Source of the DNA: Escherichia phage BUCT632
Sequence record: PQ488502.1
DNA length: 64,000 nucleotides
Reading direction: 5' to 3' (one strand)
The notes beneath the pieces are model-generated. The model ran no database searches. It had not been told where the DNA came from and saw nothing but the letters and a program-made list of their open reading frames with translations. A program made the position numbers and the translations under genes. This document shows, one piece after another, positions 5,404-57,557 of the stretch. Position 1 is the first letter of the stretch. Every line of letters starts with the position of its first letter.

Positions 5404-5404
5404 T

Positions 5405-5656: not shown

Positions 5657-5709
5657 TAGACCAAATTTAAACAAATTCAAATCTCAAACTTCATATAAGG
5701 AAGCAAATA

Positions 5710-38640: not shown

Positions 38641-38679
38641 TAGAAGGCATTTTTCCAAAACACATTTCCAGAAATTACT

Positions 38680-39279
38680 GTCGGATTTGCACACTGACAT
38701 AAGTTTAAAAACTGGTCGGATTTGCACAATTGCCTAAGTTTTTAGGAACATATAATCTCCTGAAAATGGCAGCATTATTTCGGGCCGAAGGCCCATGATT
38801 GCCTGAGTTTTTAGAGCCACAGAAATTTTCACTTGTCAAGCTATTTTGCCCCATTTTGCTAATAAAATTTTACTTTATCTCACCCCAAGCCCAATTAACC
38901 CAAATCTTCTCAACTCTTCCCCAAAAACGCAGCAAATCAGGCGTTGCACGCCACCAATGCTGCTCCTCTCGCAGTTCCCCCTATTTTCTCTCGCTCTCTC
39001 ATCTTATCCCCAAACCCACACAATCACACACCCTCTCATCGAAGTCACAAAAATCTTGTCGGATTCGCACATCTTAATCCTAGAAAAACCGTGTCGGATT
39101 TGCACATACCCCACAGGATTCGAACGCAGTTCGAGATTGCTGGAGTTTTTGGGAGACAGATTCGTCACTCTCACGAATTTATAAATTTTTCGGGTCGGAT
39201 TTGCACACTACCAAAAATTGTCGGATTTGCACATACACGCCCGCACGTAACACCCGTGGAGCAATGTCGGATTTGCACA
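38680..39279. repeat. Seven direct copies of 14-bp iteron-like motif GTCGGATTTGCACA
   Basis: copies at 38680, 38715, 39058 (variant GTCGGATTCGCACA), 39093, 39193, 39219, 39266; irregular spacing. Confidence 0.8.
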
Positions 39280-39282
39280 AAA

Positions 39283-39306
39283 GCGCAGGGCAATTGCCCT
39301 GCGCTA
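39283..39306. repeat. Perfect 24-bp palindrome AGCGCAGGGCAATTGCCCTGCGCT
   Basis: 10-bp GC-rich arms around AATT centre. Confidence 0.75.
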
Positions 39307-39530
39307 AATGAGAATAAAAATAAGAATCATTCTCATTTAAAAAGCGGAATGAGAATGATAATAATTCGCATTTAGAAAGTGAAACGATTCTCACTTAGAA
39401 AGTGGAATGATTCTCATTTAAAAAACGGAATGAAAATTATTCAGGAAGTGAAACGATTCTCATTTAGAAAGTGGAATGCGAATGATAATGATTCGCATTT
39501 AAGAATGGAAGTGAGAAACACTGCTATTTA
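39307..39530. repeat. AT-rich degenerate tandem repeat array (units like GAATGATTCTCATTTAAAAA)
   Basis: at least 8 related units of about 20-25 bp with GAATGA/TCTCATTT cores. Confidence 0.65.
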
Positions 39531-39615
39531 AGTTATCCACAGACTTATCAACAGCACGATTTGACTTGACAAAATCCTAGCCATTTTGAAGCGTTATTAA
39601 CAGACTTATCCACAG
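39523..39615. promoter_or_regulatory. Two DnaA-box consensus sites (TTATCCACA)
   Basis: TTATCCACA at 39523-39531 and 39607-39615, exact matches to E. coli DnaA box consensus. Confidence 0.6.
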
Positions 39616-39960
39616 CTTATCCTACTGTATAAATATACAGTATTCCTATGCAGTGAATAATTCTAATATACCGCTAAAACGCTCTCAAAGATTGGAGGAG
39701 GCTTGAAAATTAGTTAGCCCGCTAACGATCACACAAGGCGACACGTAACACCCTAATCATTAGCAGGCTAACCATCGCGGGCGCTGTCAAATAAGAATGA
39801 TTCTTATTTGAGAATTGGGGGCACTTCCTGATAGTTGCGCCCCGTGATTATTATAGTAGTGGGCAATCGTTACGCTTTGCCCACTCCCGCCACTCATCTT
39901 GATGCCTAGACTTGCGACGGCGTACTAAAAACCGTTTGTACCAGTGATTAAACCATCGTT

Positions 39961-40164
39961 TCATAAATCTTCCTCCGGTAGTCGATGCGTGATTTTTTCC
40001 TCTTCCCCGTAGGAATCCACTAAATACTGATAATAACCATCGTGATCATAAATCACTTTATCATACTCGCCACGCTCGACCGCTTGTCTATTTTCCGGCG
40101 TATCGGGCACGTAAAAAACATCAACCATTGTGCTAGTTTTGGTCACAACAATTTTATTGCTCAT
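39961..40164 (-). CDS. Hypothetical protein
   Basis: 67-aa minus-strand ORF, first of a minus-strand block. Confidence 0.4.
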   Translation of the reverse strand: MSNKIVVTKTSTMVDVFYVPDTPENRQAVERGEYDKVIYDHDGYYQYLVDSYGEEEKITHRLPEEDL

Positions 40165-40216
40165 AATAACGCTCCGTTACTATATAATCTCGTTGCAATA
40201 CACCAAAATTATATAG

Positions 40217-40432
40217 TTACTCATATTCTAGCTCGAAAATATCCTCACCATATAATTTGATTAAATCAACTAAATAAAACGCTGTGCCAGTATTATTATT
40301 TCTCCTTATAAATCTATGATTCGCGTCTTTAAATACAGTGAATACATCACCTGTTTTACCTACTCCCCATAAATCCTGTGTTAATTTTACCCGTTTAACC
40401 TTTAGCAACATATTCCAAGTAATTTCATTCAT
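40217..40432 (-). CDS. Hypothetical protein
   Basis: 71-aa minus-strand ORF. Confidence 0.4.
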   Translation of the reverse strand: MNEITWNMLLKVKRVKLTQDLWGVGKTGDVFTVFKDANHRFIRRNNNTGTAFYLVDLIKLYGEDIFELEYE

Positions 40433-40788
40433 TGCGCCACCTTTCGAAACGCTGTTTCAATACTATCCGCAGTGGATTGAATATATGCGCCTTTCATTAT
40501 CAGGCGCTCGGTGCATACTTTGCGGAAAATATTAATAAAATCATCTTCATTTTCTGCAATTAATGCTTCCCCCATAACTTGAACGTCACAAGATGCAAAG
40601 GTCAAAAATTGAAACGCTAGTTCACGGGCAACGACCGCATTGATTTTATAATGCGCCTTGCCCTCATAAATATTAATAACGCCCTTATAAGCTGGGGAAA
40701 GCTGATTTAAGTAGTTTGCTAGTAATGCCGGACGGCAATTAGCAACAAAACGATTACCTTCATAAATAACCATTTGACAACCTCCCAA
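40429..40788 (-). CDS. Hypothetical protein
   Basis: 119-aa minus-strand ORF overlapping downstream gene by 4 nt. Confidence 0.4.
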   Translation of the reverse strand: MGGCQMVIYEGNRFVANCRPALLANYLNQLSPAYKGVINIYEGKAHYKINAVVARELAFQFLTFASCDVQVMGEALIAENEDDFINIFRKVCTERLIMKGAYIQSTADSIETAFRKVAQ

Positions 40789-40896
40789 TTATATAGCCGG
40801 ATAATAACATAAAGATCCCCAATGAAAGGGGATCATTCTTAAATAGGGTGGCTGTAAAACCGCCAACCATTGCAAGGATAATAACAATAACGCTTT

Positions 40897-41109
40897 TCAT
40901 AGCACCCCACGAAACGCAGCGTAAAAGGTGGCAAAATGTTTAACCGTTTCAGCGATCACGTTGCCGCGCTTATCAAATTTCTTTTCTGTAACACGAAAAG
41001 CGTTTTTATTACGTGCTACATATTCGATTTTACAATCTTCCCGCTCGAACGTGTTAACATCCACCAGCTTAAATCCTTTCGAACGTGCAAGAGAAACGTT
41101 ACGGATCAT
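40897..41109 (-). CDS. Hypothetical protein
   Basis: 70-aa minus-strand ORF. Confidence 0.4.
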   Translation of the reverse strand: MIRNVSLARSKGFKLVDVNTFEREDCKIEYVARNKNAFRVTEKKFDKRGNVIAETVKHFATFYAAFRGVL

Positions 41110-41307
41110 TTTTATTCTCCTTTACTAGTCATGCAGCCCAGCAGATAAGAAAACGCAGCAATGCCAGCGCCAATAATAACGGCGTGAACGCCAAAAGCTA
41201 TTGCAAATAACGATAAAATAGCGCCCAAGATACCCGCCAGAATAGCTCGAAAAATAATCATTTTTATTCTCCTAGTCAGTGGGGGATATAATATCCCCCG
41301 TTACTAA

Positions 41308-41538
41308 TTACATTAAAACAATTTTTGCGGCTTGTTTTTTAGTGCAATGTTCAGCTTTCAGGGTATCCAGCAAAAAGCCCGCCGTTTGCTGATCGATTTT
41401 ATCGGCGTTGTATAGTTCTTGGATGGTGTTATAAGTTTTAGCAATGCCGAACTCCTGCACCATTTCATGAATAACAACGCGATTGGACACCCAACCTTGA
41501 GCGGTAAACAGATGAGTAGCAGAAGAGTAAGCAACCAT
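41308..41538 (-). CDS. Hypothetical protein
   Basis: 76-aa minus-strand ORF. Confidence 0.4.
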   Translation of the reverse strand: MVAYSSATHLFTAQGWVSNRVVIHEMVQEFGIAKTYNTIQELYNADKIDQQTAGFLLDTLKAEHCTKKQAAKIVLM

Positions 41539-41642
41539 TTTAAGCCTCCAAATTTTTGGGAAATTTTCAATCCACCGTTTTGGTGTAAAGGCATTATAAC
41601 AAAAAAGGCCACCATAAAAGGCGACCTTTACAAAACTTTACA

Positions 41643-42137
41643 TTAGACTACTTGTAAGGATTCAACATTGAAACATCGTTTCAATTCGTCATGCAAAACA
41701 GCGTATTCCTCCCATCGGGTACTATCAGGAATATAAACAAGCTGTTTTAATCGATTTGCGTATATTACCGCTTTGTTATCGACTATCTCGACGCCGCCAT
41801 ATTTAATAATTAATTTCATGACGGAATTAATAGGATCGCCGCCGTTTACATATGTGCCGGATTTACTTAGCTGATAATGATAAAGGCTTGCATATACGTT
41901 TTCATTTTCATACCATTCGCCAGTTTCTTCGTCTTCATAGCCATCACTACCAAAACGAGAAGCATTATCAACAGCCATTTCCTGAGCAAAAGCGTCCAGA
42001 TCCGTACCAGCAGGAACAAAGTATTCCTCGGTGTTCCCTTCCCCGCAATAGCCAGTATGACAATCGACTAAAATGATCATATCATGTTTAGCCGTGCTTA
42101 CTTCCCCTAGCGAGAAGCCGTATTTTTCCTCAGCCAT
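41643..42137 (-). CDS. Hypothetical acidic protein
   Basis: 164-aa minus-strand ORF. Confidence 0.5.
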   Translation of the reverse strand: MAEEKYGFSLGEVSTAKHDMIILVDCHTGYCGEGNTEEYFVPAGTDLDAFAQEMAVDNASRFGSDGYEDEETGEWYENENVYASLYHYQLSKSGTYVNGGDPINSVMKLIIKYGGVEIVDNKAVIYANRLKQLVYIPDSTRWEEYAVLHDELKRCFNVESLQVV

Positions 42138-42202
42138 TTATTAGCCTCCTATTAATTAACAAGGGAATAGTAAAGTGGGGAAATAATCCCCACTAAATAT
42201 TA

Positions 42203-43213
42203 TTACTCGATTTCGGTGCTAGTGGTAAAAGTAGAAATATCAATACCTTTCACCATTTCATCAATCATTTCAGCGATGTTAAAACTTTGCACCATTTCCA
42301 GCATTGCCGCTTCCATAGCCGCCCCCGCTACCGCTTTCGCCTTTTGGTTACTCGGTGCGTACTGGTCAACCGCCACACTCAGCAGGTTAGCAATCACTAC
42401 TCGACCGATCGGCGTATCAATATAACCTTTAATCATAAACGGTGCTTTTTTAGCCGCTACTTTCGTAATTTGAGTCAGTGCAATTTTACCCGCTTCCAGT
42501 TTTGCAGCATTTACAACAGCGGATTTATTAGCGGCAACGATGTTAGCAATCTTGGTCATGGTGTTTTTTCCTTTGTTTTCAGTAGTTTGAGTATTAACGC
42601 TTTGAGTGTTAGAATTTACAGCATGGTTTTCTACGCTGTCAATAATCTGATCTTCATCTTTCCAGAAAGAAAAACCAGCGCTTTCTATATCCCCATCATA
42701 AATATACGGGTATAACTCCCGTGGTAACAAAAAATTACCATCGCCATCAAAAGCCATTATACCAGTATATTGAGATCCGTCGTTATCCGGCTTATGCCAT
42801 CCAGCGGGTAAATACTTCCAGATAACATCTAAAAATCCCTCAATGCTAGAAAGTCCATTTATCAGATCAAGCCCAATAAGCTCGAAACCATTTATATTAA
42901 ATGATTGACGGCCTGAATTGCTATGATACGCAACAATATTATTACCCTGCGTAATAATAAAATCGGCATCCGGCCCCGCTCCCCTGCCTGTAAAGATATG
43001 GCAATCCCGATTATATAAAACTAGCGTTGCCCCTTGTTTATATAACGGCAAAAAACCATCCATATCATAAGCGTCATAATCATCAAAAAAGTTTTGATGA
43101 ATAGTCTCAATCTTGTTAATAAAATGTTTAATGCTGGTTGACTTGCTACCGTCCAGCAGGTTGCGCAATGCACCCTTTAATACGGTGGCATTATCAGGTT
43201 TATACAGCCTCAT
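42203..43213 (-). CDS. Hypothetical protein
   Basis: 336-aa minus-strand ORF; start preceded (on minus strand) by AGGAGGCCGAACAA RBS. Confidence 0.55.
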   Translation of the reverse strand: MRLYKPDNATVLKGALRNLLDGSKSTSIKHFINKIETIHQNFFDDYDAYDMDGFLPLYKQGATLVLYNRDCHIFTGRGAGPDADFIITQGNNIVAYHSNSGRQSFNINGFELIGLDLINGLSSIEGFLDVIWKYLPAGWHKPDNDGSQYTGIMAFDGDGNFLLPRELYPYIYDGDIESAGFSFWKDEDQIIDSVENHAVNSNTQSVNTQTTENKGKNTMTKIANIVAANKSAVVNAAKLEAGKIALTQITKVAAKKAPFMIKGYIDTPIGRVVIANLLSVAVDQYAPSNQKAKAVAGAAMEAAMLEMVQSFNIAEMIDEMVKGIDISTFTTSTEIE

Positions 43214-43505
43214 TTGTTCGGCCTCCTCGTTAATCGGTGAGTGAATGATATAGATATTTGTTCACTAGGGGCAAGAAAAAAGAAAATGTTTTTTATTCCT
43301 TGCCTAGCGCCTATTTTTATGCTAACCGCGCAGCGGTGTAATAAAGAGCAAAAAACGGCGAAGCCACCAGGCCGCAGCATTGAGGCTTTACTTTACTATT
43401 ACCTTGCAGCGTTTAGCTCGTTAGAATGCGATTTAGGCCGCTTAAAATTGATTGCAGTTGTTAACACTACCTTTTTACCCTGTATATTTATACAGTGGAA
43501 TAACC

Positions 43506-43872
43506 TGTGGATAAGTCTGTGCAAAAGTCCTTATATCGCCGCCTATCGTGTCAAGTTATTTCGTGCTGTGGATAACGTTGTGGATAACTTAAATGATAGT
43601 GGTTCTCACTTAGGCCGATAGTTTCTTATAGTTATTATTTCTCATTAATTTATAAGTATATTATATATTATGAAATAGTTAGTTGGCTAATGAGATTTTT
43701 CGTGATTAATAGTCTGCTAATAGTTTACTCTGTTACAGTCCACCAGCATGATTATCATCCTAGCAATTATTATCCTGCTATCTTTCCGATACATACTAGC
43801 AAACAAAAGTCAATTAATTTATTTCATAAAATAAGTAGTTATCCACTGGAAAATAAAAGTCAAGTGGATAAC
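43506..43872. promoter_or_regulatory. Cluster of five DnaA-box matches in divergent intergenic region
   Basis: TGTGGATAA at 43506-43514, 43567-43575, 43579-43587; TTATCCAC at 43839-43846; GTGGATAAC at 43864-43872. Confidence 0.55.
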
Positions 43873-44751
43873 TAGGAAAATTTCATTTTTGCTTTTGGGG
43901 ATAAGTTATCAACAAGGCTAGAATGCGCCTAAAACGCCCTAGAACGCGATGAAGTTTTTAGCCATCCCATCATAAGGGGATAGGCCGTTTATCGCTGCCA
44001 CGAGCTTTTTGGATTTTGTCAAGTAGGGCAAAGCAAATATAAATGAAAAAATTACTTGCCTATCTGCTTTATTTTGTGGTATTCGCGCGCCCGTTTCTTT
44101 TAATTTTAGGCCATCGCCGCACGGTGTCCGGTGAGTTTTGTCTTTACGTTTCTTTACAAAAATAAGGTTGCGCCATTTTCGGGAATCCCCTATTATTTAT
44201 CACGTAGGGCGGCAATGACGAACTACACGGCGGGAAGTTTACCGCCACGCTCTTTAAAAATTGGGTACATCTTAAAGCCTATCGGCGGTAAACTTATACA
44301 TTATAAGGAATCGACGATATGAAACAAACGCTTTTGATCACTGGCAAGCCTATTAAGGCACTAGATAGCAAAACAAAAAATTTGTTGACAGTAGCTCAAA
44401 GATCAGTAAAATATAGATTCACGCAGTACAAGAAAGGCCGCCAGCAAGGTTTAGAAATGATCTGGCGCAATATTATGATTGACCTGAAGGAAAATCATAA
44501 AAAATTGCAAAAAATTGTTTGACACCCTAGCCGATAGGCTTTAAGATGTACTCAGTTCGATAAGAGCGATAACTTGATAAAATTTGACGGTCGGTGCTTA
44601 CCATAATGCATCCCGCCCCCTAACGGGATATAGCGGCCTACGTGGAGTTCTTTAAATTGATTATAGCGGCGGGAGGATTGTTACTTATTACCTGCTAGTA
44701 TTTTCTAGTAGGTAATGCGGAACAATCCCCAAATAACTAGGAGTTTATACT

Positions 44752-45003
44752 ATGCAAAACGTTATTACCGCGCCGAAAGTTGGTCAATCCGTCTTCATTC
44801 CTTTCGTTACTAAAACGGATGAATTAACCGGAAAAGCCGAACGTATTAAAGGTGCGGCGCTTATGCCGTTCGATACAATCGACGCGGTATATGCTGAAAA
44901 TGAACGCAGTAACAACGGCAAGCCGATTTATAACGTTCGCGTTAAATCCGGCGACGTTGTAAAGGTTGTTCAACGCAACGAAAAATGGGAAGCTGTATTG
45001 TAA
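44752..45003 (+). CDS. Hypothetical protein
   Basis: 83-aa ORF with AGGAGTTTATACT-ATG initiation context shared by neighbouring genes. Confidence 0.45.
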   Translation: MQNVITAPKVGQSVFIPFVTKTDELTGKAERIKGAALMPFDTIDAVYAENERSNNGKPIYNVRVKSGDVVKVVQRNEKWEAVL

Positions 45004-45104
45004 TGTAGTGTTAACTTTATATTCCCCTGAAATATGGGGAATATATGGATTAACATTTAGTTAATCATTAAATCCCTTAAATTAAACTAATAGGAGTTTT
45101 TACC

Positions 45105-45512
45105 ATGACTAACGCAAAAACCGCAAAATTCGCATGGAACGAAGAAAACACTCAGAAAGCTGTTTCTATGTATCAGCAGTTAATCAACGAAAACGGTTTA
45201 GATTTCGCAAATAGCGACGGTTTAAAAGAGATTGCAAAAGCAGTAGGCGCGGCTTCTCCCGTATCCGTTCGGTCAAAATTGACCAGTGCAAAAGCCTATC
45301 AAAAAAGCGATAAGCCGCGTAAAGTTGGCGGCGGTAGCTCTGTGCGTAAAGCTCACTATGTGCGCGTTATCGCTAAACATGCTATCGATTCCGGCATTAT
45401 CAAAGACGCCGATGATCTGGCAAGTCTGGAAAGTGCAAAACTTGAAACGCTGGACGCAGTAGCGCAATTGTTAGGCGTTGCTGATGAAGTAAAACAAGCC
45501 GCAGGCGAATAA
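45105..45512 (+). CDS. Hypothetical protein
   Basis: 135-aa ORF with shared AGGAGTTTTTACC-ATG context. Confidence 0.5.
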   Translation: MTNAKTAKFAWNEENTQKAVSMYQQLINENGLDFANSDGLKEIAKAVGAASPVSVRSKLTSAKAYQKSDKPRKVGGGSSVRKAHYVRVIAKHAIDSGIIKDADDLASLESAKLETLDAVAQLLGVADEVKQAAGE

Positions 45513-45513
45513 T

Positions 45514-45557
45514 AGTTATACCTTGCCCCCTTCTAGTGAGGGGGCAATAATATAACT
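45514..45557. other. Long palindromic hairpin (no U-tract) after gene
   Basis: AGTTATACCTTGCCCCC...GGGGGCAATAATATAACT. Confidence 0.5.
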
Positions 45558-45602
45558 GTTTAGCGATAGTTATTTTCTTCCCTTAAATCAGGAGTTTTAA
45601 AA

Positions 45603-45800
45603 ATGATTTTCTTCCCTACTGAATCTTTGATTCTAGGCTTGTTTATTATGGCGGCCTCATTATTGTTCGCTTATTTTCAAAATGATTTAGATTCGTATTA
45701 TTTTAAACGTAAATCTAAGTTAGCAAAACGTTTAGGTCTGCTTTGTTTTATCGCTGCCGTTGCTTGTGGTGTTAGTTCTAGCCTAGTGCCTTTAAATTAA
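45603..45800 (+). CDS. Hypothetical small membrane protein
   Basis: 65-aa ORF, two hydrophobic segments. Confidence 0.35.
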   Translation: MIFFPTESLILGLFIMAASLLFAYFQNDLDSYYFKRKSKLAKRLGLLCFIAAVACGVSSSLVPLN

Positions 45801-45890
45801 TGTTGCAAATTATAACGCCTATTATTTGAGGCGTTATATTTGGCAATATTGCCATTATTAATCTAATCCCTTTAATGGAGTTTTATTACT

Positions 45891-47561
45891 ATGATTATTT
45901 CCGCAGAAAAACAAACCGTTATCCTGAAAATGGCCGCTGACTTTAATTTCTATGGTAAACGTCTGCGCGCTACTAAACTGGAGGTCTGCGACGATATATC
46001 AAAAGCAGTCTACGATACAACGAAACATTCTACCGCCATTTGTGATTGGCTGGAAGCAAACAAACCAGCTAAACCGAAAGCGGCAAAAGTAGCAAAAGCC
46101 ATTAAAAACGACGAGCGCCCCGAAGCGGCTGGGATTGTTTCTAGTACGGTTGAGCAATGGGAAGTAAAACAGGGTAAACGTTTTATTATTACGTCGATTC
46201 AGAATAATACTTTCCCGCATAAAAACTTTTTAGCAAGTCTGGAAAAATTCGCTGAATATATCGGTGCCGATTTGCTTGTTTCTAAGTATATTTATAATAA
46301 AAACGGCTTCCAAAATGGAGAAGGTGCAGACGGAATCAAATATGATTCTGCGTTTGATAAATATATTTGCAGCAAAAACGTGTTTTTAAATAACCGCCGT
46401 TTTGCTTTCATGGCTGAAATTAATGTTTTGCCTACCGCAGATTATCCGCTTTCTGGATTCGCAGAAACTGCAACGGCTTTAAATATTGAAGGTCTGGCAA
46501 TTGGTCACGCTAAAATTACCGCTGAAAGCGTACCAGCTTTAAAAGGTGAAGTAGTGCGCCGTATGTACTCAACCGGAACGGCAACCCTCAAAAACTACAT
46601 TCAGCAGAAAGCAGGACAAAAGGCCGAGGCGCTGCATAACTTCGGTGCGCTGATTGTTGAGTTCGACGAGGACGGGGAATTTTTTGTTCGCCAGCTTGAA
46701 ACGATGGACGAAAGCGGGGTATTTTATGATCTGAATGTGTGCGCTACTCCTGCCGGATGCTATGAGACATCGGGGCATGTTTTAGGCTTGCAGTATGGTG
46801 ATATTCATGCAGAAAAACTAGATGAGGCTTGCGCTCAAGCGTCTTGGGGTCATGGTGATACTTATGGGCTTGTGGATATTCTCAAACCGAAATATCAGTT
46901 TGTACATGATGTGCATGATTTTACATCCCGCAATCATCATAACCGCGCTTCTGGTGTATTCCTAGCGAAACAGTACGCCGCCGGACGTGATAAGGTTATT
47001 GATGATCTTATCGATACGGGGCGCGTGCTGGAATCAATGGAGCGTGATTTTTCTCAAACAATCATTGTTGAATCAAATCACGATTTGGCGTTATCCCGTT
47101 GGCTGGATGATCGAAATGCTAACATCAAAGACGATCCAGCAAACGCCGAACTATATCACAGCCTAAACGCTGCAATCTATGCGGCTATTGCAAAGCAGGA
47201 CGATACTTTCAACGTGCTAGATTATGCCTTGCGTAAGGTAGCAGGTTGTGAATTTAACGCCATTTTCCTGACCACTGACCAATCATTTAAAATTGCAGGC
47301 ATTGAATGCGGCGTACACGGTCACAACGGCATTAACGGCAGCCGTGGCAACCCGAAACAATTTAAGAAATTGGGCAAGTTAAACACGGGGCATACGCATA
47401 CCGCCAGCATTTACGGTGGCGTTTATACCGCTGGCGTTGCTGGTAGTCTGGATATGGGTTACAACGTTGGCGCGTCAAGCTGGACGCAAACGCATTTAAT
47501 TACATACGCCAACGGCCAGCGCACTTTGATTGACTTTAAAAACGGCAAGTTTTTCGCATAA
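45891..47561 (+). CDS. A1: A1-like pre-early protein with calcineurin-like metallophosphoesterase motifs
   Basis: 556 aa (length matches recalled T5 A1); motifs GDIHAEKLD, HDVHDF, GHTHTASIY. Confidence 0.6.
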   Translation: MIISAEKQTVILKMAADFNFYGKRLRATKLEVCDDISKAVYDTTKHSTAICDWLEANKPAKPKAAKVAKAIKNDERPEAAGIVSSTVEQWEVKQGKRFIITSIQNNTFPHKNFLASLEKFAEYIGADLLVSKYIYNKNGFQNGEGADGIKYDSAFDKYICSKNVFLNNRRFAFMAEINVLPTADYPLSGFAETATALNIEGLAIGHAKITAESVPALKGEVVRRMYSTGTATLKNYIQQKAGQKAEALHNFGALIVEFDEDGEFFVRQLETMDESGVFYDLNVCATPAGCYETSGHVLGLQYGDIHAEKLDEACAQASWGHGDTYGLVDILKPKYQFVHDVHDFTSRNHHNRASGVFLAKQYAAGRDKVIDDLIDTGRVLESMERDFSQTIIVESNHDLALSRWLDDRNANIKDDPANAELYHSLNAAIYAAIAKQDDTFNVLDYALRKVAGCEFNAIFLTTDQSFKIAGIECGVHGHNGINGSRGNPKQFKKLGKLNTGHTHTASIYGGVYTAGVAGSLDMGYNVGASSWTQTHLITYANGQRTLIDFKNGKFFA

Positions 47562-47568
47562 TTAAATT

Positions 47569-47594
47569 TATAAGCTGGAAATATTTCCAGCTTA
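47569..47594. other. Perfect palindromic hairpin after A1-like gene
   Basis: ATAAGCTGGAAATATTTCCAGCTTAT. Confidence 0.5.
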
Positions 47595-47626
47595 TACCCT
47601 TATTAAATTAATTGGAGTTTATAACT

Positions 47627-48019
47627 ATGAAAAAGCAAAATATCCCATTCGATCGCGCTCAATCCTCAATCGTTCTGGTTTATTCTAATGGTGAACGTTA
47701 CCACGTCGAGGCGGGGCACGTTGTTGATGATTTAATCGAGTTTAACGAGGCGTTACAGATCACGACTTTCGCCTATACGCAAGGCCGCGCAAGTAGTCAC
47801 ATCAAGGCCGCTGGCGTTTATGTTGACACGGTGAAACAAGAAACGATTATCATCGACGCCGTAAAATCCGGCCTAGCCTTTGCAGTTGTCGCGCCTTGCC
47901 CCGCTTGCCTAGATGATCAGCTAACGAGTGCAAAGGTATATACCTGCGCGGGTATTCGTTCCAGTGTATCAGGTGAGGATGTTAGTTTTATCGCTGATGC
48001 GTTGGCTTATGGTCTTTAA
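47627..48019 (+). CDS. A2: A2-like pre-early protein (by position and size)
   Basis: 130-aa ORF immediately downstream of A1-like gene; ATG 47627 after GGAG. Confidence 0.45.
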   Translation: MKKQNIPFDRAQSSIVLVYSNGERYHVEAGHVVDDLIEFNEALQITTFAYTQGRASSHIKAAGVYVDTVKQETIIIDAVKSGLAFAVVAPCPACLDDQLTSAKVYTCAGIRSSVSGEDVSFIADALAYGL

Positions 48020-48098
48020 TAGTTAATTTATTATTACCCGCTTATAAATAGCGGGTAATGCTGAATTAATCTAATCCCTTAAATGGAGAACGTAACAA

Positions 48099-48833
48099 AT
48101 GAATAAAGCTATTATGAATATTTCCCGCAGCTTCCCGCATATTTCCCGCGTCATGATTTGGGATTTAGACGGCACTATCATTAATTCTTTCCATCGTGTA
48201 GCGCCTTGCTTTGATAGTGAGGGCAATTTAGATTTAAATAAGTATAAAAATGAAGCGTGTAAACATCATTTAATAATGCAGGATTCTTTATTGCCATTGG
48301 TTGAATACATGCGCCAATGTATGAATGACGCAAATACTTTAAATATTATTTGTACCGCTCGACTAATGAGCAAGTCGGACTATTATTATTTGCGTAAACA
48401 AGGTCTGCGCGGTCGTGGTAATAGTAATATCCGCGTGTTTTCCCGCGATACACTGCATAAATATTTTAAAGCTGATAAGGTTAGCGAGATATACCACAGC
48501 AAAGACGCAGTTTATAAATCTTATTATTTTGAATTATTTAAACAGCTATATCCGAACGCTGATTTTACGATGATTGATGATCATAAAGGCGTATTATCAG
48601 CGGCGGCATCATACGGATTTAAAACGCTGGACGCGCAAGCCGTTAACGATATTCTATCAATCGGGGTGGCATTGATAGGTGAAACCTTTATCGATGAATC
48701 GCTCGATGATGATAATGATTATCAGTTCCTAGCCGATCGTTTGAAATTATGTTGGGAAGGTATGACCGAGGAAGAACGCGCAGAATATAGTTGCAGCCCG
48801 CAACAATACATGGAGAAATTAAAAGTTGCATAA
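48099..48833 (+). CDS. dmp: HAD-family 5'-deoxynucleotidase (dmp-like)
   Basis: 244 aa; HAD motif I MIWDLDGTII near N-terminus; size and position consistent with recalled T5 dmp. Confidence 0.5.
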   Translation: MNKAIMNISRSFPHISRVMIWDLDGTIINSFHRVAPCFDSEGNLDLNKYKNEACKHHLIMQDSLLPLVEYMRQCMNDANTLNIICTARLMSKSDYYYLRKQGLRGRGNSNIRVFSRDTLHKYFKADKVSEIYHSKDAVYKSYYFELFKQLYPNADFTMIDDHKGVLSAAASYGFKTLDAQAVNDILSIGVALIGETFIDESLDDDNDYQFLADRLKLCWEGMTEEERAEYSCSPQQYMEKLKVA

Positions 48834-48847
48834 TAATTAAAGTTGAA

Positions 48848-48884
48848 ATAGTCACGGTGTGTAACGATAACATGCCGTGACTAT
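48848..48884. other. Hairpin with 10-bp perfect stem after dmp-like gene
   Basis: ATAGTCACGG...CCGTGACTAT. Confidence 0.5.
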
Positions 48885-48984
48885 TAGCTTGCTAAGTACC
48901 GGGCGGTAATGAGACTTATTCTCATCTCGGGGGGCACTGGACACACCTCCATGTGTAATCTTATGAAATTTGGCAAAAGTCAAA

Positions 48985-49230
48985 TTAGCGCATAGAAGGG
49001 TCATCAAACCTGTGTTCTGGTCTGAACTCACGGAATCTCTTCCGCGACGCCCGAGATCCATCCGACCACTCCCGATCAAACTCCGCACGTTTCTCGTCAA
49101 ACTTCCGCTCCCTTTCCGCAATCTCCCGCGCCACTTCCGCAATATATTTACGATGCTTGTTGATTGCCGCAGTCGTCCCGAAAACTCCCGCGAGTACCCC
49201 TATAATAAAAGCAATTACAATACTAAACAT
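48985..49230 (-). CDS. Hypothetical membrane-anchored protein
   Basis: 81-aa minus-strand ORF, N-terminal TM then Arg/Glu-rich tail; two shorter membrane ORFs follow upstream on the same strand. Confidence 0.35.
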   Translation of the reverse strand: MFSIVIAFIIGVLAGVFGTTAAINKHRKYIAEVAREIAERERKFDEKRAEFDREWSDGSRASRKRFREFRPEHRFDDPSMR

Positions 49231-49639
49231 TATTTATATTCCCGTAGCTTACGTTCAATACGAGCTAAGTGGTTATCCAAGACACATTGCCCTAGAATTA
49301 CCACAACTAATAAAACAATAATTATTACCTCCATTAAAGCCACCCCGCCATAGCTGCTAACCAAAAGCCTACGAAGATTAGGAATAATACAAAACCAAAT
49401 CCGTAAATATTAATCCACGCTTCATACACTTCTCCGCGTCTGCTCTTTCTTTTGTTTGGCATATCTTTCACTCTCCAATAAATATGGTATTTTAAAGTAT
49501 TTTATAGTTTGTACATAACCAACCATGCTCGTGACTTCCTAGAAGGACTTCTACTTTTCTCACATAGTGGTTTCTGCTAGTACACCATCCAAGAAATAAA
49601 AAATTTAGTTTACTTGGATGTCTTTTTGCTTTATACTAA

Positions 49640-49991: not shown

Positions 49992-51749
49992 ATGGGTTTT
50001 TTCGCTGGAAAATATAGCGATGGTAAGACCGTACTATCTTTAAATACTGAATCTGGTGGTGACATTAATCGTCACTATAGTCCAAATGCCAATAGTATTT
50101 TTCATAGTGATATGCCATTTGTCCTAGTTGATGGTACTTATGAGTCTGGGTTAGGTGATGCCGGTAATGGGTTTTTTGTATGTCAGATGCCCTCTGACAT
50201 AATAAATATTAAATCCAATGACCCCGGTAGAGTTATATTAACTGCTATTGAGATTAATGGTACTCACAGAGCTTTTCTTAATGGTACTCAGAGTAAGGTG
50301 GGTCAAACTATAGTTGCCACTCAAGCAGATCCTTTTAGATCTTTTGCTAGTGTTTCCCAGACTAGTGGATTTGCATTTGGTAATAGCCTGGCATCTGGTA
50401 CATATAACTATAATCCATCTATAGGACATGAAGAATCTATTTCTAGGAATGGTACAGGGGGTACTACCTTACATAGTACGTATCATGGTATAGTTAGGCC
50501 AGGTGCAGGAGCTCCAGTAGGTATTACTGTTGCAGAAGCTTTTGCACAGTTAGGATTCCCTACTAATAGTAGTACAGTACCTATAGATAGTAATAACCAA
50601 TATTACTGGGACCCAGGATGGATGTCTCCTTTAGGATCAGCACACAGAGGGCACGATTGGTTTTATGTTTGTAACTCTAACATACGTGGGTATGGTGGGG
50701 TAAGACAAGGTCTTCCTGGTAATGTAAATACTATGTATCATGATGGGGGTAATAGATTTGTTTGTAGAGGTTCTACAACTAATTTAGCTAATCAATCTGG
50801 TAACGCTACAATATTACAGGATTGGTATAACATAACCCCTACTAAAGTTATTTGGTACGTTTTGAATTTAAGATACTCAAATGGTAATATGGGTATTTCT
50901 GGTAATCCTTTTACTGGCTCAGATATTCTTATCTCTCCCTCTAATTTTACTATAAAAGGGGTTAGTTTACCGAATACTGGGTATAAGTTTATCAACCAAA
51001 ATGCTTTTGGTAACTTAGGTTATAGACCAGATATGGAATATATTGGAAATAACGCAGCGTACACCGGGGCCTTTGGGGATACCACTGCAAGATGTGAACT
51101 TGTAGGTTCTAGTAACGGGAGTTTATGGTCTCCTGTAGACTATGGAGGGGCTAAGTCTCAAATTAGTATTTACAAATTCGGAGCTGGTAAGCAATGGTAT
51201 GTAAATTCTAATGATAATACTATCGGTAATGAACACGGGGTTGTTTGGGGGCCTTCAGCAGTTCCACTACGACTTTTTAGCGGAAATGTTGGTAGTTCTT
51301 ACATGGGGGATGATATTACTCCCAGCTATCCAGGAACTGGAGATAGATACGTTGGTTTATCAACTATTGGGCTAGGTATACCGGGTGGCAATGCTACTGT
51401 AATTCTTACCACTGAAGTTATATCAGGTAATCTTAACTGTGCAGGTGTTCCTGCTAATACATGGAATAACGGTGTGTTTCAAGTGCAGGGAAGAAGAGCA
51501 TATAGTTATAGTAATGGAGACGCGATATTCCACCAGATTTTAACACTACCAGTAGGGTATTTAGTACCTTTTCATACTACATCTGCTTTTAGATACACAC
51601 CTAACAATGCCCTAAGTAGAAATAGTTTTATATACACTGCTAAAAATCTGGGGAACGGAAATGTAGAGTTAGGGGTAGTTATGCACGTAAGTTTAGGTAG
51701 TGCAGTTTTTCTACCTAGATTAAGAGTAACAGTTCAACGCCTTACCTAA
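49992..51749 (+). CDS. Receptor-binding tail protein (pb5/Oad-like candidate)
   Basis: 585-aa Gly/Asn/Ser/Thr-rich ORF between Llp-like gene and terminase genes. Confidence 0.45.
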
Positions 51750-51759: not shown

Positions 51760-52242
51760 ATGGCAAATGATGTATTAGTACCAGATCTTATGTCCCCTGA
51801 AGGGATGGATGTGATTGAAGCTTATTTACAGTGCGGTAGCGATGTGCCTTCTGCCGCACGTAGTCTTGGAATGTCCGAAATTGCTTTCCGAGATATTATG
51901 AATCGTAGTGAAGTTAAGAATTACTTAAACGATATTTTTATGGAAAGTGGTTTCCGTAACAGGGATCGTTTATTTGGTGTTCTGGATGAAGTTATTAAGC
52001 GTAAGCTGGAGGAACTGGAAGAAACTGGCATGGGTTCTGACCAAGATATTATGGATATTCTCTGGAAAGCACATAAAATGAAAATGGAAGAAATGAAAAT
52101 GATGGTAGAATTGGAGAAAGTGAAGGCAGCAGCCCGTACTCCAGCTAACCAGACCAATATCCAGAATAATATTATTGCTGGAGCTGGGGATCAAAACTAC
52201 ATGGACTTAATTACTTCCCTAGCTACTGGAGGTAAGAAGTAA
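51760..52242 (+). CDS. Terminase small subunit (candidate)
   Basis: 160-aa ORF immediately upstream of and abutting large terminase; GGAGG RBS. Confidence 0.45.
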
Positions 52243-53558
52243 TGGAAGTATCAAGACCCTACGTTAATACGGTAGATGTTATTGATTTCGGGATAGATAA
52301 ACGTTTCTTTCGTCTACCTGTTTCAGGAATACTAGCACAAGAAGGTATTACACCTAATGGTCCTCAAATAGCGATTATCAATGCGCTAGAAGACCCTAGA
52401 CATCGTTTTGTAACGGCGTGTGTATCACGCCGTGTGGGCAAGTCCTTCATCGCGTATACTCTTGGGTTCCTAAAATTGCTGGAACCTAATGTGAAGGTGT
52501 TGGTAGTTGCTCCTAACTACTCACTGGCCAACATCGGGTGGTCTCAGATTCGTGGTCTTATTAAAAAGTACGGCCTACAAACCGAACGTGAGAACGCTAA
52601 AGATAAAGAGATTGAGCTAGCAAACGGCTCACTGTTTAAACTAGCTTCTGCGGCGCAGGCTGACTCCGCAGTTGGACGTTCATATGACTTTATCATCTTC
52701 GATGAGGCGGCAATTTCCGACGTTGGTGGTGATGCCTTTAGAGTTCAGTTGCGTCCTACTCTAGATAAGCCTAATTCTAAGGCTCTATTTATCTCTACTC
52801 CTCGTGGGGGTAACTGGTTTAAAGAGTTTTATGCCTATGGATTTGATGATACATTACCTAACTGGGTATCTATTCATGGTACATATCGTGATAACCCACG
52901 TGCTGATCTGAATGACATCGAAGAAGCACGTCGTACAGTTAGTAAAAACTACTTCCGTCAGGAATATGAGGCTGACTTCTCTGTATTCGAAGGTCAGATC
53001 TTTGATACCTTTAATGCTATCGATCATGTTAAAGATCTCAAAGGTATGCGTCACTTCTTTAAAGATGATGACGCATTCGAAACGTTGCTTGGTATTGACG
53101 TTGGTTATCGTGATCCTACAGCAGTTCTTACTATTAAGTACCACTATGATACAGATACCTACTATGTATTAGAAGAGTACCAGCAGGCAGAGAAAACTAC
53201 AGCGCAACATGCTGCGTATATTCAGCACTGTATAGATCGTTATAAAGTTGATCGTATTTTTGTTGACTCTGCAGCAGCTCAGTTCCGTCAGGACTTAGCT
53301 TATGAACATGAAATTGCATCAGCTCCAGCTAAAAAATCTGTCCTAGATGGTCTAGCATGTTTACAGGCACTATTCCAACAGGGAAAGATTATTGTAGACG
53401 CTTCATGCTCTTCATTAATCCATGCATTGCAGAACTACAAGTGGGATTTCCAAGAAGGTGAAGAGAAATTATCACGTGAAAAACCACGTCATGATGCTAA
53501 CTCTCACCTCTGTGATGCGCTGCGCTATGGAATTTACTCTATTTCCCGTGGTAAATAA
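52242..53558 (+). CDS. Terminase large subunit
   Basis: 438 aa; Walker A-like VSRRVGKSF and DE motif FIIFDEAA; position before portal/capsid genes. Confidence 0.7.
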   Translation: MEVSRPYVNTVDVIDFGIDKRFFRLPVSGILAQEGITPNGPQIAIINALEDPRHRFVTACVSRRVGKSFIAYTLGFLKLLEPNVKVLVVAPNYSLANIGWSQIRGLIKKYGLQTERENAKDKEIELANGSLFKLASAAQADSAVGRSYDFIIFDEAAISDVGGDAFRVQLRPTLDKPNSKALFISTPRGGNWFKEFYAYGFDDTLPNWVSIHGTYRDNPRADLNDIEEARRTVSKNYFRQEYEADFSVFEGQIFDTFNAIDHVKDLKGMRHFFKDDDAFETLLGIDVGYRDPTAVLTIKYHYDTDTYYVLEEYQQAEKTTAQHAAYIQHCIDRYKVDRIFVDSAAAQFRQDLAYEHEIASAPAKKSVLDGLACLQALFQQGKIIVDASCSSLIHALQNYKWDFQEGEEKLSREKPRHDANSHLCDALRYGIYSISRGK

Positions 53559-53672
53559 ATAAGTATAGGATGGGATACTACTCAGTTGGTATCCCATTCC
53601 TGCATTTTAAAATCCCCTTTACAAATTCGATACGATTATGTATACTATATTCATACAGTTGAGGAGAACACT

Positions 53673-54026
53673 ATGGCAAGCAATATAAAATATAAACGCG
53701 ATGCTATATCCCTTATGAGAGACGGAATAAAAAGTCAATATAAAAAAGACTCTCAATGTGCTATCTGCGGTTGTGCTGAAGAATTAGAGCTTCATCATTA
53801 CCATACGGTGTCTCTACTAGTTAAGGCATGAGCTAGTAGAAGACACTGTTACCCTTTGTGTACACCATCACCAATTATTACATAAGGTTTACACAAAAGA
53901 ACCTCCTTTATTTTCTGCTAATAAGCAAAAAGTGTGGGTTCAAAAGCAGAAAGACAAATTACAGAATCCTCAAGAAAAGACACAAGTCAAGACTGAAACA
54001 AAATCAGGATTCGCAAGGTTCTTATA
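53673..54026 (+). pseudogene. HNH endonuclease-like gene split by a frameshift near 53820-53833
   Basis: frame 0 gives ...CAICGCAEELELHHYH then stop at 53831; frame +1 continues ...TLCVHHHQLLH... to stop at 54026. Confidence 0.4.
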
Positions 54027-55039
54027 ATGGGTTTTAAAAGCTGGATTACTGAAAAGCTAAATCCGGGTCAACGTATTATAAGAGACATGGAACCAGTTAG
54101 TCATCGCACTAACCGTAAGCCTTTTACCACTGGACAAGCCTACAGTAAAATTGAGATTCTCAATAGAACTGCTAATATGGTTATAGATAGTGCGGCGGAG
54201 TGTTCTTATACTCATGTACGACCTAATCCGTAGACTTGTAGTCACTGACCTACTTTTTGAAGGTTGTGCATACATCTATTGGGATGGCACAGCACTTTAT
54301 CATGTCCCTGCTGCACTAATGCAAGTAGAGGCAGATGCCAATAAGTTTATCAAAAAATTTATATTTAATAATCAGATAGACTATCGCGTAGATGAGATTA
54401 TCTTTATAAAGGATAACAGTTACGTGTGTGGCACAAATTCTCAAATTTCTGGACAATCTCGTGTTGCTACTGTTATTGACTCTCTTGAGAAGCGTTCTAA
54501 GATGCTTAACTTTAAAGAGAAGTTCCTCGATAACGGAACCGTGATTGGTCTTATTCTTGAGACGGATGAAATCCTGAACAAGAAATTGCGTGAGCGTAAA
54601 CAAGAAGAATTACAACTAGATTATAATCCTAGTACAGGTCAGTCCTCTGTCCTGATTAGACTAAGTACTGCTTGATGGTGGTAATAATGCGAACATTCGA
54701 CCAAACATCGAATTGTTCTACTATATGACTATCATCCCTATGCTGAACAAGCTGACTAGTTCTCTTACTTTCTTTTTTGGTTATAAGATTACTCCTAATA
54801 CTAAGGAAGTAGCTGCATTAACACCAGATAAAGAATCTGAGGCTAAACATTTAACCTCATTGGTTAATAATGGTATTATAACTGGTAATGAAGCTCGTTT
54901 AGAGCTGAACCTTGAACCTTTAGATGATGAGCAGATGAATAAGATTCGTATTCCTGCTAACGTTGCTGGTTCTGCAACAGGTGTATCCGGTCAAGAAGGT
55001 GGTAGACCTCAAGGTTCCACCGAGGGAGATAAAGAATGA
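54027..55039 (+). pseudogene. Portal protein gene region, coding potential split across three reading frames
   Basis: ORFs 54027..54233, 54190..54675, 54713..55039 in three frames sit where portal is expected; an ATG at 53828 would give a 403-aa portal if frames were continuous. Confidence 0.4.
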
Positions 55040-55527
55040 TTGATTATAGTGGTCTAAAGACCATTTTTGGTGAAAAACTGCCAGAATCTCATATCTTCTT
55101 TGCTACGGTTGCTGCGCATAAATATGTTCCTAGCTATGCTTTTCTGCGTAGAGAACTAGGACTTTCATCTGCGCATACTAACCGTAAAGTATGGAAGAAA
55201 TTTGTAGAGGCTTATGGTGCAGCAGTTCCTCCTGCTCCGCCTGCTCCGCCCTTAACTCTTTCTAAAGATTTAACTGCTAGCATGTCTGTTGAAGAGGGAG
55301 CAGCGTTAACACTTTCTGTTACTGCAACCGGTGGCACTGGTCCGTATACTTATGCTTGGACTAAAGATGGTGCTCCTATTCCAGATGCTACAGATGCTAC
55401 CTATACTAAGCCTGCAGCAGCTACTGAGGATTCTGGAGTCTATAAAGTAACGGTAACAGATAGCAAGAAAGTTAGTAAGGATTCTACTGCATGCACAGTA
55501 ACGGTTAATCCCGGTGTTGGAGGCTAA
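55036..55527 (+). CDS. Capsid decoration protein with C-terminal Ig-like domain (pb10-like)
   Basis: 163 aa; Pro-rich linker then Ig-like segment LTLSVTATGGTGPYTYAWTKDG...VYKVTVTD. Confidence 0.55.
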   Translation: MIDYSGLKTIFGEKLPESHIFFATVAAHKYVPSYAFLRRELGLSSAHTNRKVWKKFVEAYGAAVPPAPPAPPLTLSKDLTASMSVEEGAALTLSVTATGGTGPYTYAWTKDGAPIPDATDATYTKPAAATEDSGVYKVTVTDSKKVSKDSTACTVTVNPGVGG

Positions 55528-55530: not shown

Positions 55531-56163
55531 ATGACACAAGCTGCTATTGACTATAACAAGTTAAAATCAGCACCGGTTCATTTAGATGCTTATATTAAAT
55601 CTATTGATAGCGAATCTAAAGAGGGTGTTGTAAAAATCCGGGGATTCGCTAATACAATTAGTAAAGATCGCGCTGGCGATGTAATCCCTGCTTCCGCATG
55701 GAAAACATCTAATGCACTTGCTAACTATATGAAAAACCCGATTATTCTTTTCGGACACGACCATCGTCGTCCAATCGGCAAGTGTATTGATCTTAATCCT
55801 ACTGAAATGGGTCTCGAAATTGAGTGCGAGATTTATGAAAGTTCTGATCCGGCTATCTTTTCACTAATTAAAAACGGTGTGCTGAAAACTTTTAGTATCG
55901 GATTCCGCTGCTTAGATGCAGAGTGGGATGAAGCTACTGATATATTTATTATTAAAGATTTAGAACTATACGAAGTTTCGGTAGTTTCTGTACCTTGTAA
56001 TCAGGACTCAACATTCAATCTCGCTAAGAGCATGAATGGTCATGATTATACTGAATGGCGCAAATCTTTTACTGCAATAAGTTCTAAAGCTGTCCCAGCT
56101 CAAGAACGTAATCTTTCTGAACTAGAAAAACTTGCGATAGCTTTAGGCTACGTTAAAGAATAA
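55531..56163 (+). CDS. Prohead maturation protease (HK97-family S78-like)
   Basis: 210 aa, located between decoration and major capsid genes; segment FGHDHRRPIG. Confidence 0.6.
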   Translation: MTQAAIDYNKLKSAPVHLDAYIKSIDSESKEGVVKIRGFANTISKDRAGDVIPASAWKTSNALANYMKNPIILFGHDHRRPIGKCIDLNPTEMGLEIECEIYESSDPAIFSLIKNGVLKTFSIGFRCLDAEWDEATDIFIIKDLELYEVSVVSVPCNQDSTFNLAKSMNGHDYTEWRKSFTAISSKAVPAQERNLSELEKLAIALGYVKE

Positions 56164-56180: not shown

Positions 56181-57557
56181 ATGACTATTGATATTAATAA
56201 GCTGAAAGAAGAACTTGGTCTGGGTGATCTGGCTAAATCTCTGGAAGGTCTGACCGCTGCTCAGAAAGCTGCTGAAGCTGAACGTATGCGTAAAGAGCAG
56301 GAAGAAAAAGAACTGGCTCGTATGAACGACCTGGTTTCTAAAGCAGTTGGCGAAGATCGTCAGAAGCTAGAAGAAGCTCTGGAACTGGTTAAATCCCTGG
56401 ATGAAAAATCCAAGAAGAGCGCAGAACTGTTTGCACAGACTGTAGAAAAACAGCAGGAAACTATTGTTGGTCTTCAGGACGAAATCAAATCTCTGCTGGC
56501 AGCTCGTGAAGGACGTTCCTTCGTCGGTGATAGCGTAGCTAAAGCACTGTATGGTACTCAGGAAAACTTTGAAGACGAAGTAGAGAAACTGGTTCTTCTG
56601 TCCTACGTGATGGAAAAAGGTGTATTTGATACCGAACATGGCCAGAGACACCTGAAAGCAGTAAACAACTCCTCTTCTGTAGAAGTTTCTAGTGAAAGTT
56701 ACGAAACTATTTTCTCCCAGCGTATTATTCGTGATCTGCAGAAAGAACTAGTGGTTGGTGCTCTGTTCGAAGAACTGCCAATGTCCAGCAAATTGCTGAC
56801 CATGCTGGTTGAGCCAGAAGCTGGTAAAGCTACCTGGGTAGATGCTTCCACTTATGGTACTGATGCTACTACGGGTAACGAAGTTAAAGGTGCTCTGACT
56901 GAAATTCAGTTCAAGACCTATAAACTGGCTGCTAAATCCTTCATTACTGATGAAACTGAAGAAGATGCAATCTTCTCCTTGCTGCCACTGCTTCGTAAGC
57001 GTCTGATTGAAGCACACGCTGTTTCTATTGAAGAAGCCTTTATGACTGGTGATGGTTCTGGCAAGCCAAAAGGTCTGCTGACTCTTGCTAGTGAAGATAG
57101 TGCTAAGGTTGTTACCGAAGCTAAAGCTGACGGTTCTGTACTGGTAACTGCTAAAACTATCTCTAAACTGCGTCGTAAACTGGGCCGTCATGGTCTGAAA
57201 CTGAGCAAACTGGTACTGATCGTATCTATGGATGCTTACTACGATCTGCTGGAAGATGAAGAATGGCAGGATGTTGCACAGGTTGGTAATGATGCTGTTA
57301 AACTGCAGGGCCAGGTTGGTCGTATTTATGGTCTGCCGGTTGTAGTTTCTGAGTACTTCCCGGCTAAAGCTAACTCTGCAGAATTCGCAGTTATTGTTTA
57401 TAAAGATAACTTCGTAATGCCGCGTCAGCGCGCTGTTACTGTTGAACGTGAGCGCCAGGCTGGTAAACAGCGTGATGCATACTACGTTACTCAGCGTGTT
57501 AACCTGCAACGTTACTTTGCAAATGGCGTTGTGTCCGGTACTTACGCTGCATCTTAA
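56181..57557 (+). CDS. Major capsid protein (pb8-like)
   Basis: 458 aa with N-terminal coiled-coil scaffold-like region; strongly biased codon usage; followed by strong terminator. Confidence 0.75.
   Translation: MTIDINKLKEELGLGDLAKSLEGLTAAQKAAEAERMRKEQEEKELARMNDLVSKAVGEDRQKLEEALELVKSLDEKSKKSAELFAQTVEKQQETIVGLQDEIKSLLAAREGRSFVGDSVAKALYGTQENFEDEVEKLVLLSYVMEKGVFDTEHGQRHLKAVNNSSSVEVSSESYETIFSQRIIRDLQKELVVGALFEELPMSSKLLTMLVEPEAGKATWVDASTYGTDATTGNEVKGALTEIQFKTYKLAAKSFITDETEEDAIFSLLPLLRKRLIEAHAVSIEEAFMTGDGSGKPKGLLTLASEDSAKVVTEAKADGSVLVTAKTISKLRRKLGRHGLKLSKLVLIVSMDAYYDLLEDEEWQDVAQVGNDAVKLQGQVGRIYGLPVVVSEYFPAKANSAEFAVIVYKDNFVMPRQRAVTVERERQAGKQRDAYYVTQRVNLQRYFANGVVSGTYAAS

Follow-up and report, generated by a model that had tools for sequence, protein, structure and literature searches.

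The window analysed here, a 64,000-nt stretch of the genome of Escherichia phage BUCT632 (PQ488502.1), belongs to a T5-like phage (Demerecviridae, Tequintavirus) and includes its late-gene block, with the genes for the receptor-binding protein, both terminase subunits, the decoration protein, the prohead protease and the major capsid protein (Table 1). The first-pass annotation had recorded the large terminase, decoration, protease and capsid genes as intact, which they are, and had drawn attention to the interval 53673-55039 that lies among them, where an HNH-like ORF changes frame and the portal region is divided over ORFs at 54027-54233, 54190-54675 and 54713-55039, in three frames; we find the ORFs at exactly these places. 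A megablast search with positions 53400-55300 matched 445 phage records, 429 of them with at least 80% query coverage at 90-99% identity, and in all top matches the 1,901 query bases correspond to 2,180-2,189 bases of the record and align in four pieces. In the relatives, the interval holds two genes, the 438-nt sciA (145 aa) and the 1,218-nt portal gene (405 aa), and measures 1,655 bp in its intact form against 1,367 bp as recorded in the window, a shortfall of 288 bp.

Table 1. Features of the late-gene region in window coordinates, followed by the recurrent lesion sites in coordinates (p) of the intact reference ABTNLsp9
Feature	Position	Strand	Description
Receptor-binding protein gene	49992-51749		
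Small terminase gene	51760-52242		
Large terminase gene	52242-53558		438 aa, intact
sciA 5′ fragment	53673-53823	+	codons 1-51; CxxC and LELHHYH motifs kept
Deletion D1	53823/53824 junction	+	83 bp, sciA; shifts the sciA frame
sciA 3′ fragment	53824-54027	+	codons 79-145 and stop TAA (54025-54027), different frame
Portal fragment 1	54027-54212	+	codons 1-62; ATG 54027; 100% identity (tblastn)
Portal deletion	54212/54213 junction	+	59 bp
Portal deletion	54213/54214 junction	+	10 bp
14-nt island	54213-54226	+	C followed by ATGTACGACCTAA; left between the 59-, 10- and 23-bp deletions
Portal deletion	54226/54227 junction	+	23 bp
Portal fragment 2	54227-54656	+	codons ~99-241, second frame; 100% identity (tblastn)
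Portal deletion	54656/54657 junction	+	56 bp, out of frame
6-nt island	54657-54662	+	TAGACT; left between the 56-bp and 57-bp deletions
Portal deletion	54662/54663 junction	+	57 bp
Portal fragment 3	54663-55039	+	codons ~282-405 and stop TGA (55037-55039), third frame; 100% identity (tblastn)
Decoration protein gene	55036-55527		163 aa, intact
Prohead protease gene	55531-56163		210 aa, intact
Major capsid protein gene	56181-57557		458 aa, intact
Recurrent site D1	p265-302		38 bp in most records; 37 in SP1a, 41 in OSY-STA, 83 in the window; left edge common
Recurrent site D2	p737-795		59 bp; 58 in SP1a, 50 in STWB21, 100 in OSY-STA, 59+10+23 in the window
Recurrent site D3	p1272/3-1328		56 or 57 bp in all records compared
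Capsid-gene site	~p3478-3721		most records; not the window, not GSP044

Many near-identical relatives carry, between the large terminase gene and sciA, a gene for a 224-230-aa homing endonuclease of the T5orf172/MUG113 family (GIY-YIG-like), which is absent from the window (53559-53672) and from ABTNLsp9; this presence/absence polymorphism adjoins the lesion cluster. Among 20 intact relatives, nucleotide diversity in the sciA-to-capsid block is by far the highest in the 3′ half of the decoration gene (~55300-55527), at 0.2-0.3 compared to a mean of 0.08; the products measure 160-164 aa, and several short metagenome contigs end within this stretch. Upstream of the late genes, the pre-early genes (A1/A2 region, ~38400-49300) directly adjoin the receptor-binding protein gene (49992 onward); in T5, the same pre-early/late junction is the start of the right terminal repeat, and the window assembly, like that of ABTNLsp9, appears to hold one collapsed copy of the ~10-kb terminal repeat. 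The receptor-binding protein of the window looks like a distinct allele: two segments of its gene (50306-50626 and 51248-51629) find no counterpart in ABTNLsp9, SP3 or SP1a by megablast, the remainder is 81-92% identical, and the exact 585-aa protein is not among the 15 billion proteins of the collection searched, nor are the decoration protein and the fragment proteins of the window.

The HNH-like gene is, by homology, sciA, predicted to encode the nicking site-specific endonuclease of T5, an HNH-type enzyme (PF26848). Like intact SciA (HNH/His-Me finger), the recorded gene immediately follows that for the large terminase and retains the Cys/His motifs: by tblastn, its 5′ fragment is 98% identical to residues 1-51 of the 145-aa ABTNLsp9 protein, and its 3′ fragment, in frame 1, is 100% identical to residues 79-145. 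Both fragments match phrog_3497, the 5′ fragment with E=7.5e-19 together with a weak match to an HNH phrog and the 3′ fragment together with phrog_37261. The label PF26848 (Phage_T5_Nicking_endo) derives from precomputed hits on intact contigs and the sciA annotation from DT57C; our local Pfam search gave no PF26848 match, even for the intact 145-aa protein. Unlike intact SciA, the window copy lacks residues 52-78, the 83-bp deletion shifts the frame at 53823/53824, and a contiguous HNH core is not encoded. The first-pass annotation had placed the frame change near 53820-53833, in good agreement with the N-terminal ORF ending at 53831. By contrast, its proposal that the portal gene starts at 53828, overlapping the HNH-like frame and leaving the boundary between the two genes unresolved, did not hold. 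The ATG at 53828 sits out of frame inside sciA (AGG CAT GAG), the supposed 403-aa frame from there to 55039 contains 24 stops, and the match of this length to the 403 aa of T5 pb7 is coincidental. The boundary is clean, with the portal ATG at 54027 overlapping the sciA stop (TAATG), as in the relatives.

The three portal ORFs are collinear segments of a single portal protein rather than distinct small proteins, according to both tblastn and Pfam comparisons with relatives. All 329 retained residues are identical to those of the ABTNLsp9 portal, an intact protein that matches PDB 8hqo_D with E=7.6e-270. Fragment 2 matches PF04860 (Phage_portal) with 51 bits (cutoff 39.1; profile positions 56-195) and fragment 3 with 38.6 bits, slightly below the cutoff (profile positions 241-321), compared to 170 bits for the intact portal of a relative; the N-terminal fragment alone has no Pfam match. 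The gene occupies the same genomic position as that for the T5 portal pb7 (403 aa, PDB 9ilp/9imv; 405-aa homologue 8hqo; HK97-type, PF04860), between terminase/sciA and the decoration, protease and major capsid genes. However, in place of the continuous ORF of ~403-405 aa that encodes the subunit of the dodecameric portal ring, the window has three frames, lacks 205 bp at five junctions compared to T5-like portals, and can encode no full portal. About 72 codons (218 bp; residues ~63-98 and 242-281, including, for example, the peptide VGDKYNIVTYANGIK) are absent and not just out of frame. Thus, the portal gene as recorded is a gene remnant and not a functional member of the family. There is no sequence decay in the retained codons, which differ from those of ABTNLsp9 at nine synonymous sites and at no genuine nonsynonymous site, the single nonsynonymous difference being a deletion-junction base itself.

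Alignment to intact relatives resolves the shortfall into six deletions within 0.85 kb of sciA and the portal gene, and it is these multi-base deletions, of 10-83 bp, that cause the frame changes among the ORFs. The first-pass annotation had suggested localised sequencing or assembly indels; the kind of explanation is the one that we favour, but homopolymer indels are not what is seen, the deletions being far longer and falling at recurrent sites. The DNA between the sciA junction and the first portal junction (53824-54212) is 100% identical to that of ABTNLsp9. A tblastn scan with 148 ABTNLsp9 ORFs of at least 80 aa revealed no other gene split across frames in the 64-kb window, the remaining flagged ORFs being either cut by the window ends or spurious antisense ORFs. 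Such clustering, with six deletions in 0.85 kb while the other ~60 kb of coding sequence have none, is unlike the decay of a defective genome. Neither scattered lesions nor signs of relaxed selection, the marks of a pseudogene or a defective phage, were found, and, with the lesions confined to sciA and the portal gene and the retained codons undecayed, a defective phage, another option of the first-pass annotation, is unlikely.

The missing 288 bp are present in ~430 relatives at 90-99% identity, which encode continuous 145-aa and 405-aa proteins, and the 60 best GenBank matches to the intact T5_ev212 region are all single-piece and intact. Among the exact-terminase and exact-protease contigs described next, the sole apparent exception for sciA, that of saus132, is intact and has a GTG start missed by the gene caller; accordingly, a 46-aa ‘hypothetical protein’ annotated in saus132, SE20 and other phages, which we had considered as a further lesion, was rejected as such. 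In Epseptimavirus, sciA starts with GTG, as seen at MF431736.1 (GCA_002955435.1) 1250-1810, in STWB21 and in other records of the genus, and only the 46-aa C-terminal ORF is annotated (a UniRef cluster with 13 phages), which is an annotation gap and not a lesion. The exact large terminase of the window occurs in seven ENA/Logan contigs, and those that reach the region have a 145-aa sciA and a 405-aa portal. Its exact protease occurs in 534 blocks of an assembly collection, and all ten of those listed have a 405-aa portal and a 458-aa capsid protein. Altogether, all 17 listed contigs (ENA, Logan, NCBI) with the exact terminase or protease of the window carry an intact 405-aa portal; their sciA products measure 127-145 aa, except where a GTG start was not called (one contig) and where the contig stops upstream (one contig). 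In the metagenome-contig collection, the junction at site D3 was found 0 times and the intact sequence 8 times; in IMG/VR, the lesion junctions are present solely in the imported SP3 record; and, in the 15-billion-protein collection, lesion-specific protein fragments are confined to the GenBank records, the only additional short fragments being some from ENA with ends at or near the lesion sites.

The lesions of the window are shared with other deposited genomes. Short junction-spanning queries detected the sciA junction in nine other phages (13 records, including RefSeq copies), namely, SP3 (MG387042), Stp1 (KY775453), SP1a (MF774689), STWB21 (MW567727), OSY-STA (MN187969), GSP044 (OP394141), MET_P1-88 (PV804860), MET_P1-197_46 and CPphiVTCCBPA_418 (PQ773600.1). 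The downstream portal junction, searched in the same way, is present in six of the nine phages (8 records), and the upstream portal lesion is also found in GSP001. In sciA and at two portal sites, the left edges of the deletions coincide between the window and the lesion-bearing Salmonella T5-like records; the 59-bp deletion of the window has the exact boundaries of those in SP3, GSP044 and MET_P1-88, and its 56-bp deletion those of SP3. Unlike these records, the window has extra losses just downstream of the shared lesions (+45, +10, +23 and +57 bp), and it lacks the capsid-gene lesion, whereas most of the others have one; at site D3, a further loss is also found in OSY-STA (98 bp, compared to 57 bp in the window). 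A 104-aa ORF of the window, from the ATG at 54725, has identical counterparts in SP3 and SP1a, annotated there as ‘hypothetical’ or ‘portal’. The window is 87-97% identical overall to SP3 and SP1a and thus represents a different phage. Furthermore, several junctions are identical across records of different genera with SNP differences within 15 nt, and are therefore recurrent rather than one inherited allele.

In genome-wide scans of SP3 and OSY-STA, only the sciA, portal and major capsid genes are broken. The records come from about six laboratories and were assembled with IVA+SEQuel, CLC or Geneious. At three lesions, SP1a retains exactly one base more on the left side than does SP3, a record from the same laboratory, and this looks more like an effect of edges or coordinates than like inheritance. 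Two of the nine records have peculiarities of their own. PQ773600.1, deposited as a 41,325-bp Corynebacterium phage, contains T5-like Salmonella-phage DNA at ~4759-6145, with a 294-aa portal fragment 100% identical to that of STWB21 and the same sciA junction; its Corynebacterium label is likely a case of contamination or mislabelling. MET_P1-88 has many single-base deletions, at 961-2275 and elsewhere, and a fragmented large terminase gene, which suggests that this assembly is generally error-prone, unlike those of SP3, OSY-STA and the window.

Some of the phages with the broken genes have been characterized experimentally. SP3 forms normal siphovirus particles by electron microscopy and was sequenced on a HiSeq, assembled with IVA+SEQuel, and deposited as a record labelled partial genome (PMC6812015). 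Portal and capsid peptides were identified by LC-MS/MS in virions of STWB21, the genome of which was assembled with CLC (PMC9441917). OSY-STA reaches 1e9 PFU/ml and was sequenced from a Nextera XT library at 1,235x and assembled with Geneious (PMC7453293), and GSP001 makes BtuB-dependent plaques (PMC9603643). The portal is on the list of virion proteins of T5-like phages (PMC10644984) and is reportedly required for correct T5 procapsid assembly (Huet 2016, as cited in PMC10644984). Given that SP3, STWB21, OSY-STA and GSP001 are viable, the broken portal and capsid genes in their records cannot be working genes. The case of sciA differs: T5 mutants without nicks are viable, according to work cited in PMC3517423, so that the loss of sciA alone would be tolerable, unlike that of the portal.

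We infer that the lesions are, very probably, a recurrent artefact of sequencing or assembly present in the deposited sequence, and that the real phage would have both genes intact, with a 145-aa sciA product and a 405-aa portal. The same sites are broken in records of viable phages, and the lesions are restricted to a few isolate submissions, with none in the automated assemblies examined. Under this interpretation, six segments of 10-83 bp, 288 bp in all, would have been lost while the sequence was produced, possibly at some step between library preparation or read processing and assembly, gap closure or consensus calling, so that the recorded sequence would not be that of the functional genome. 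The process would behave deterministically, yielding the same junctions on different SNP backgrounds and, in the window and OSY-STA, an extra loss just downstream. Given the shared exact 59- and 56-bp deletions and the common left edge in sciA, the same process most likely made the lesions of the window; and, given that the extra losses start only 0-14 nt downstream of shared junctions, this process seems tied to the junctions rather than being random further mutation.

The main competing explanation is that the deletions are physically real, the sequenced stock having been dominated by defective genomes without functional portal and sciA genes that were propagated by intact helpers, with site-specific hot spots accounting for the recurrence. 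In favor of this view, the same sites with identical junctions recur across some six laboratories, different assemblers and different SNP backgrounds, which is unlike random misassembly; the lesions are confined, genome-wide, to the sciA, portal and capsid genes; and a true zero-coverage segment, which simple point-lesion or read-trimming models do not predict, would be hard to obtain if reads were only trimmed or filtered. This combination of reproducible junctions with trimming models that lack true zero coverage is what leaves a small residual probability for physically real deletions. However, the phage needs both its portal and its major capsid protein, and each stock obtained by plaque purification descends from one self-sufficient genome. 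Furthermore, no microhomology, hairpin or nick-site motif was found at the junctions to account for a hot spot, metagenome, Logan and ENA assemblies from this phage group do not contain the junctions, and the retained codons have not decayed; nor would random further decay be expected to place the extra losses next to the shared ones. Accordingly, we consider defective genomes carried by helpers improbable, and a recurrent site-specific process that deletes four fixed sites within the sciA, portal and major capsid genes of T5-like phages quite improbable. If true, it would imply that defective genomes are frequent in lysates from several countries, with programmed or hot-spot self-inactivation of morphogenesis genes.

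Natural allelic variation as the source of some gaps, for instance, a tolerated in-frame deletion of a 57-bp (19-aa) portal loop, was considered because of STWB21, GSP044 and MET_P1-88, in which the in-frame 57-bp version gives a 294-aa ORF. All eight records with the 57-bp junction, however, also carry frame-breaking sciA and portal lesions, the version in the window is 56 bp and out of frame, and, in intact phages, few other parts of the gene are as conserved as this segment (nucleotide diversity 0.010, 5th percentile). Our search for a read-verified, otherwise intact T5-like genome with the 57-bp deletion alone found none, and we regard natural variation as very improbable. The first-pass annotation had also raised an unusual mode of expression, by which the portal would be produced from the split ORFs through several programmed frameshifts, through translational bypasses or by assembly from separate fragments. 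Three collinear fragments in three frames do bear a superficial likeness to the bypass in T4 gene 60 or the -1 frameshift of tail chaperones, where one protein is encoded over more than one frame, and mass spectrometry of STWB21 ‘detected’ its 294-aa fragment, with the authors' own ORFs as the database (PMC9441917). In those systems, however, all coding information is kept and the arrangement is conserved in relatives, whereas the window portal loses information: the ~72 codons are physically missing, beyond the reach of any recoding; the split is not conserved, ~430 relatives having one continuous ORF; the lesion lengths vary between records, which is incompatible with a conserved recoding signal; and the N-terminal fragment matches no Pfam family on its own. 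This option is thus excluded on the ground of the missing coding sequence, and its probability is practically nil.

With respect to why these sites in particular are affected, we considered a range of causes, none of which gained support. Adapter sequences (Nextera mosaic end, TruSeq, index primers) have better matches elsewhere in the genome, at sites free of lesions. The DNA folds of the four sites have z-scores of -0.84 to +0.76, which lends no support to hairpins or inverted repeats. The T5 nick consensus R/GCGCRGG (PMC3517423) does not match at any boundary, even with one mismatch allowed. Searches for microhomology, direct repeats and copies of the junction sequences elsewhere in the genome, and for a motif common to the four lost segments, also found none. 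Exact matches to the published T5 major-nick consensus RGCGCRGG occur in the window at 10180, 26268, 39282(+)/39298(-), 49125 and 52652, including a facing pair 16 nt apart; these six matches compare to 2.5 expected, 6 of 100 shuffles reach six, and none lies near the deletions. For the sciA and portal segments, no 28-nt match was found in 5,426 E. coli genomes, and a search of 72,556 plasmids for vector similarity likewise gave no 28-nt match.

Several more specific scenarios were rejected. Collapse of mixed strains at hypervariable patches is at odds with the lost segments being, among intact phages, of average conservation or more conserved than their flanks, and a T5-guided assembly that drops divergent patches with T5 being 87-100% identical in the lost segments. 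The involvement of about six laboratories using IVA, CLC or Geneious refutes the pipeline of a single laboratory as the source. Inheritance from a faulty reference, such as SP3, does not fit either: the junction sets combine differently between records, as in MET_P1-88, which has the portal junction of SP3 and the capsid junction of STWB21, and the window holds regions that are absent from SP3. All the lesion records are those of Salmonella phages, but, given that they come from some six laboratories, this host association is not significant (p about 0.1, an estimate).

The immediate implication concerns data quality, in that at least 10 T5-like phage records carry the same short deletions in the sciA, portal and capsid genes. 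Among these, SP3, OSY-STA and STWB21 have RefSeq copies in the collection searched, and SP3 and OSY-STA name virus species. Through such errors, protein databases acquire spurious ‘hypothetical proteins’ and ‘portal’ entries that are split, and the errors can spread via reference-guided work. The break sites are reproducible across laboratories, and it would come as a surprise if the deletions turned out to be real. For the biology of the phage itself, the consequences are small: BUCT632 almost certainly has ordinary sciA and portal genes.
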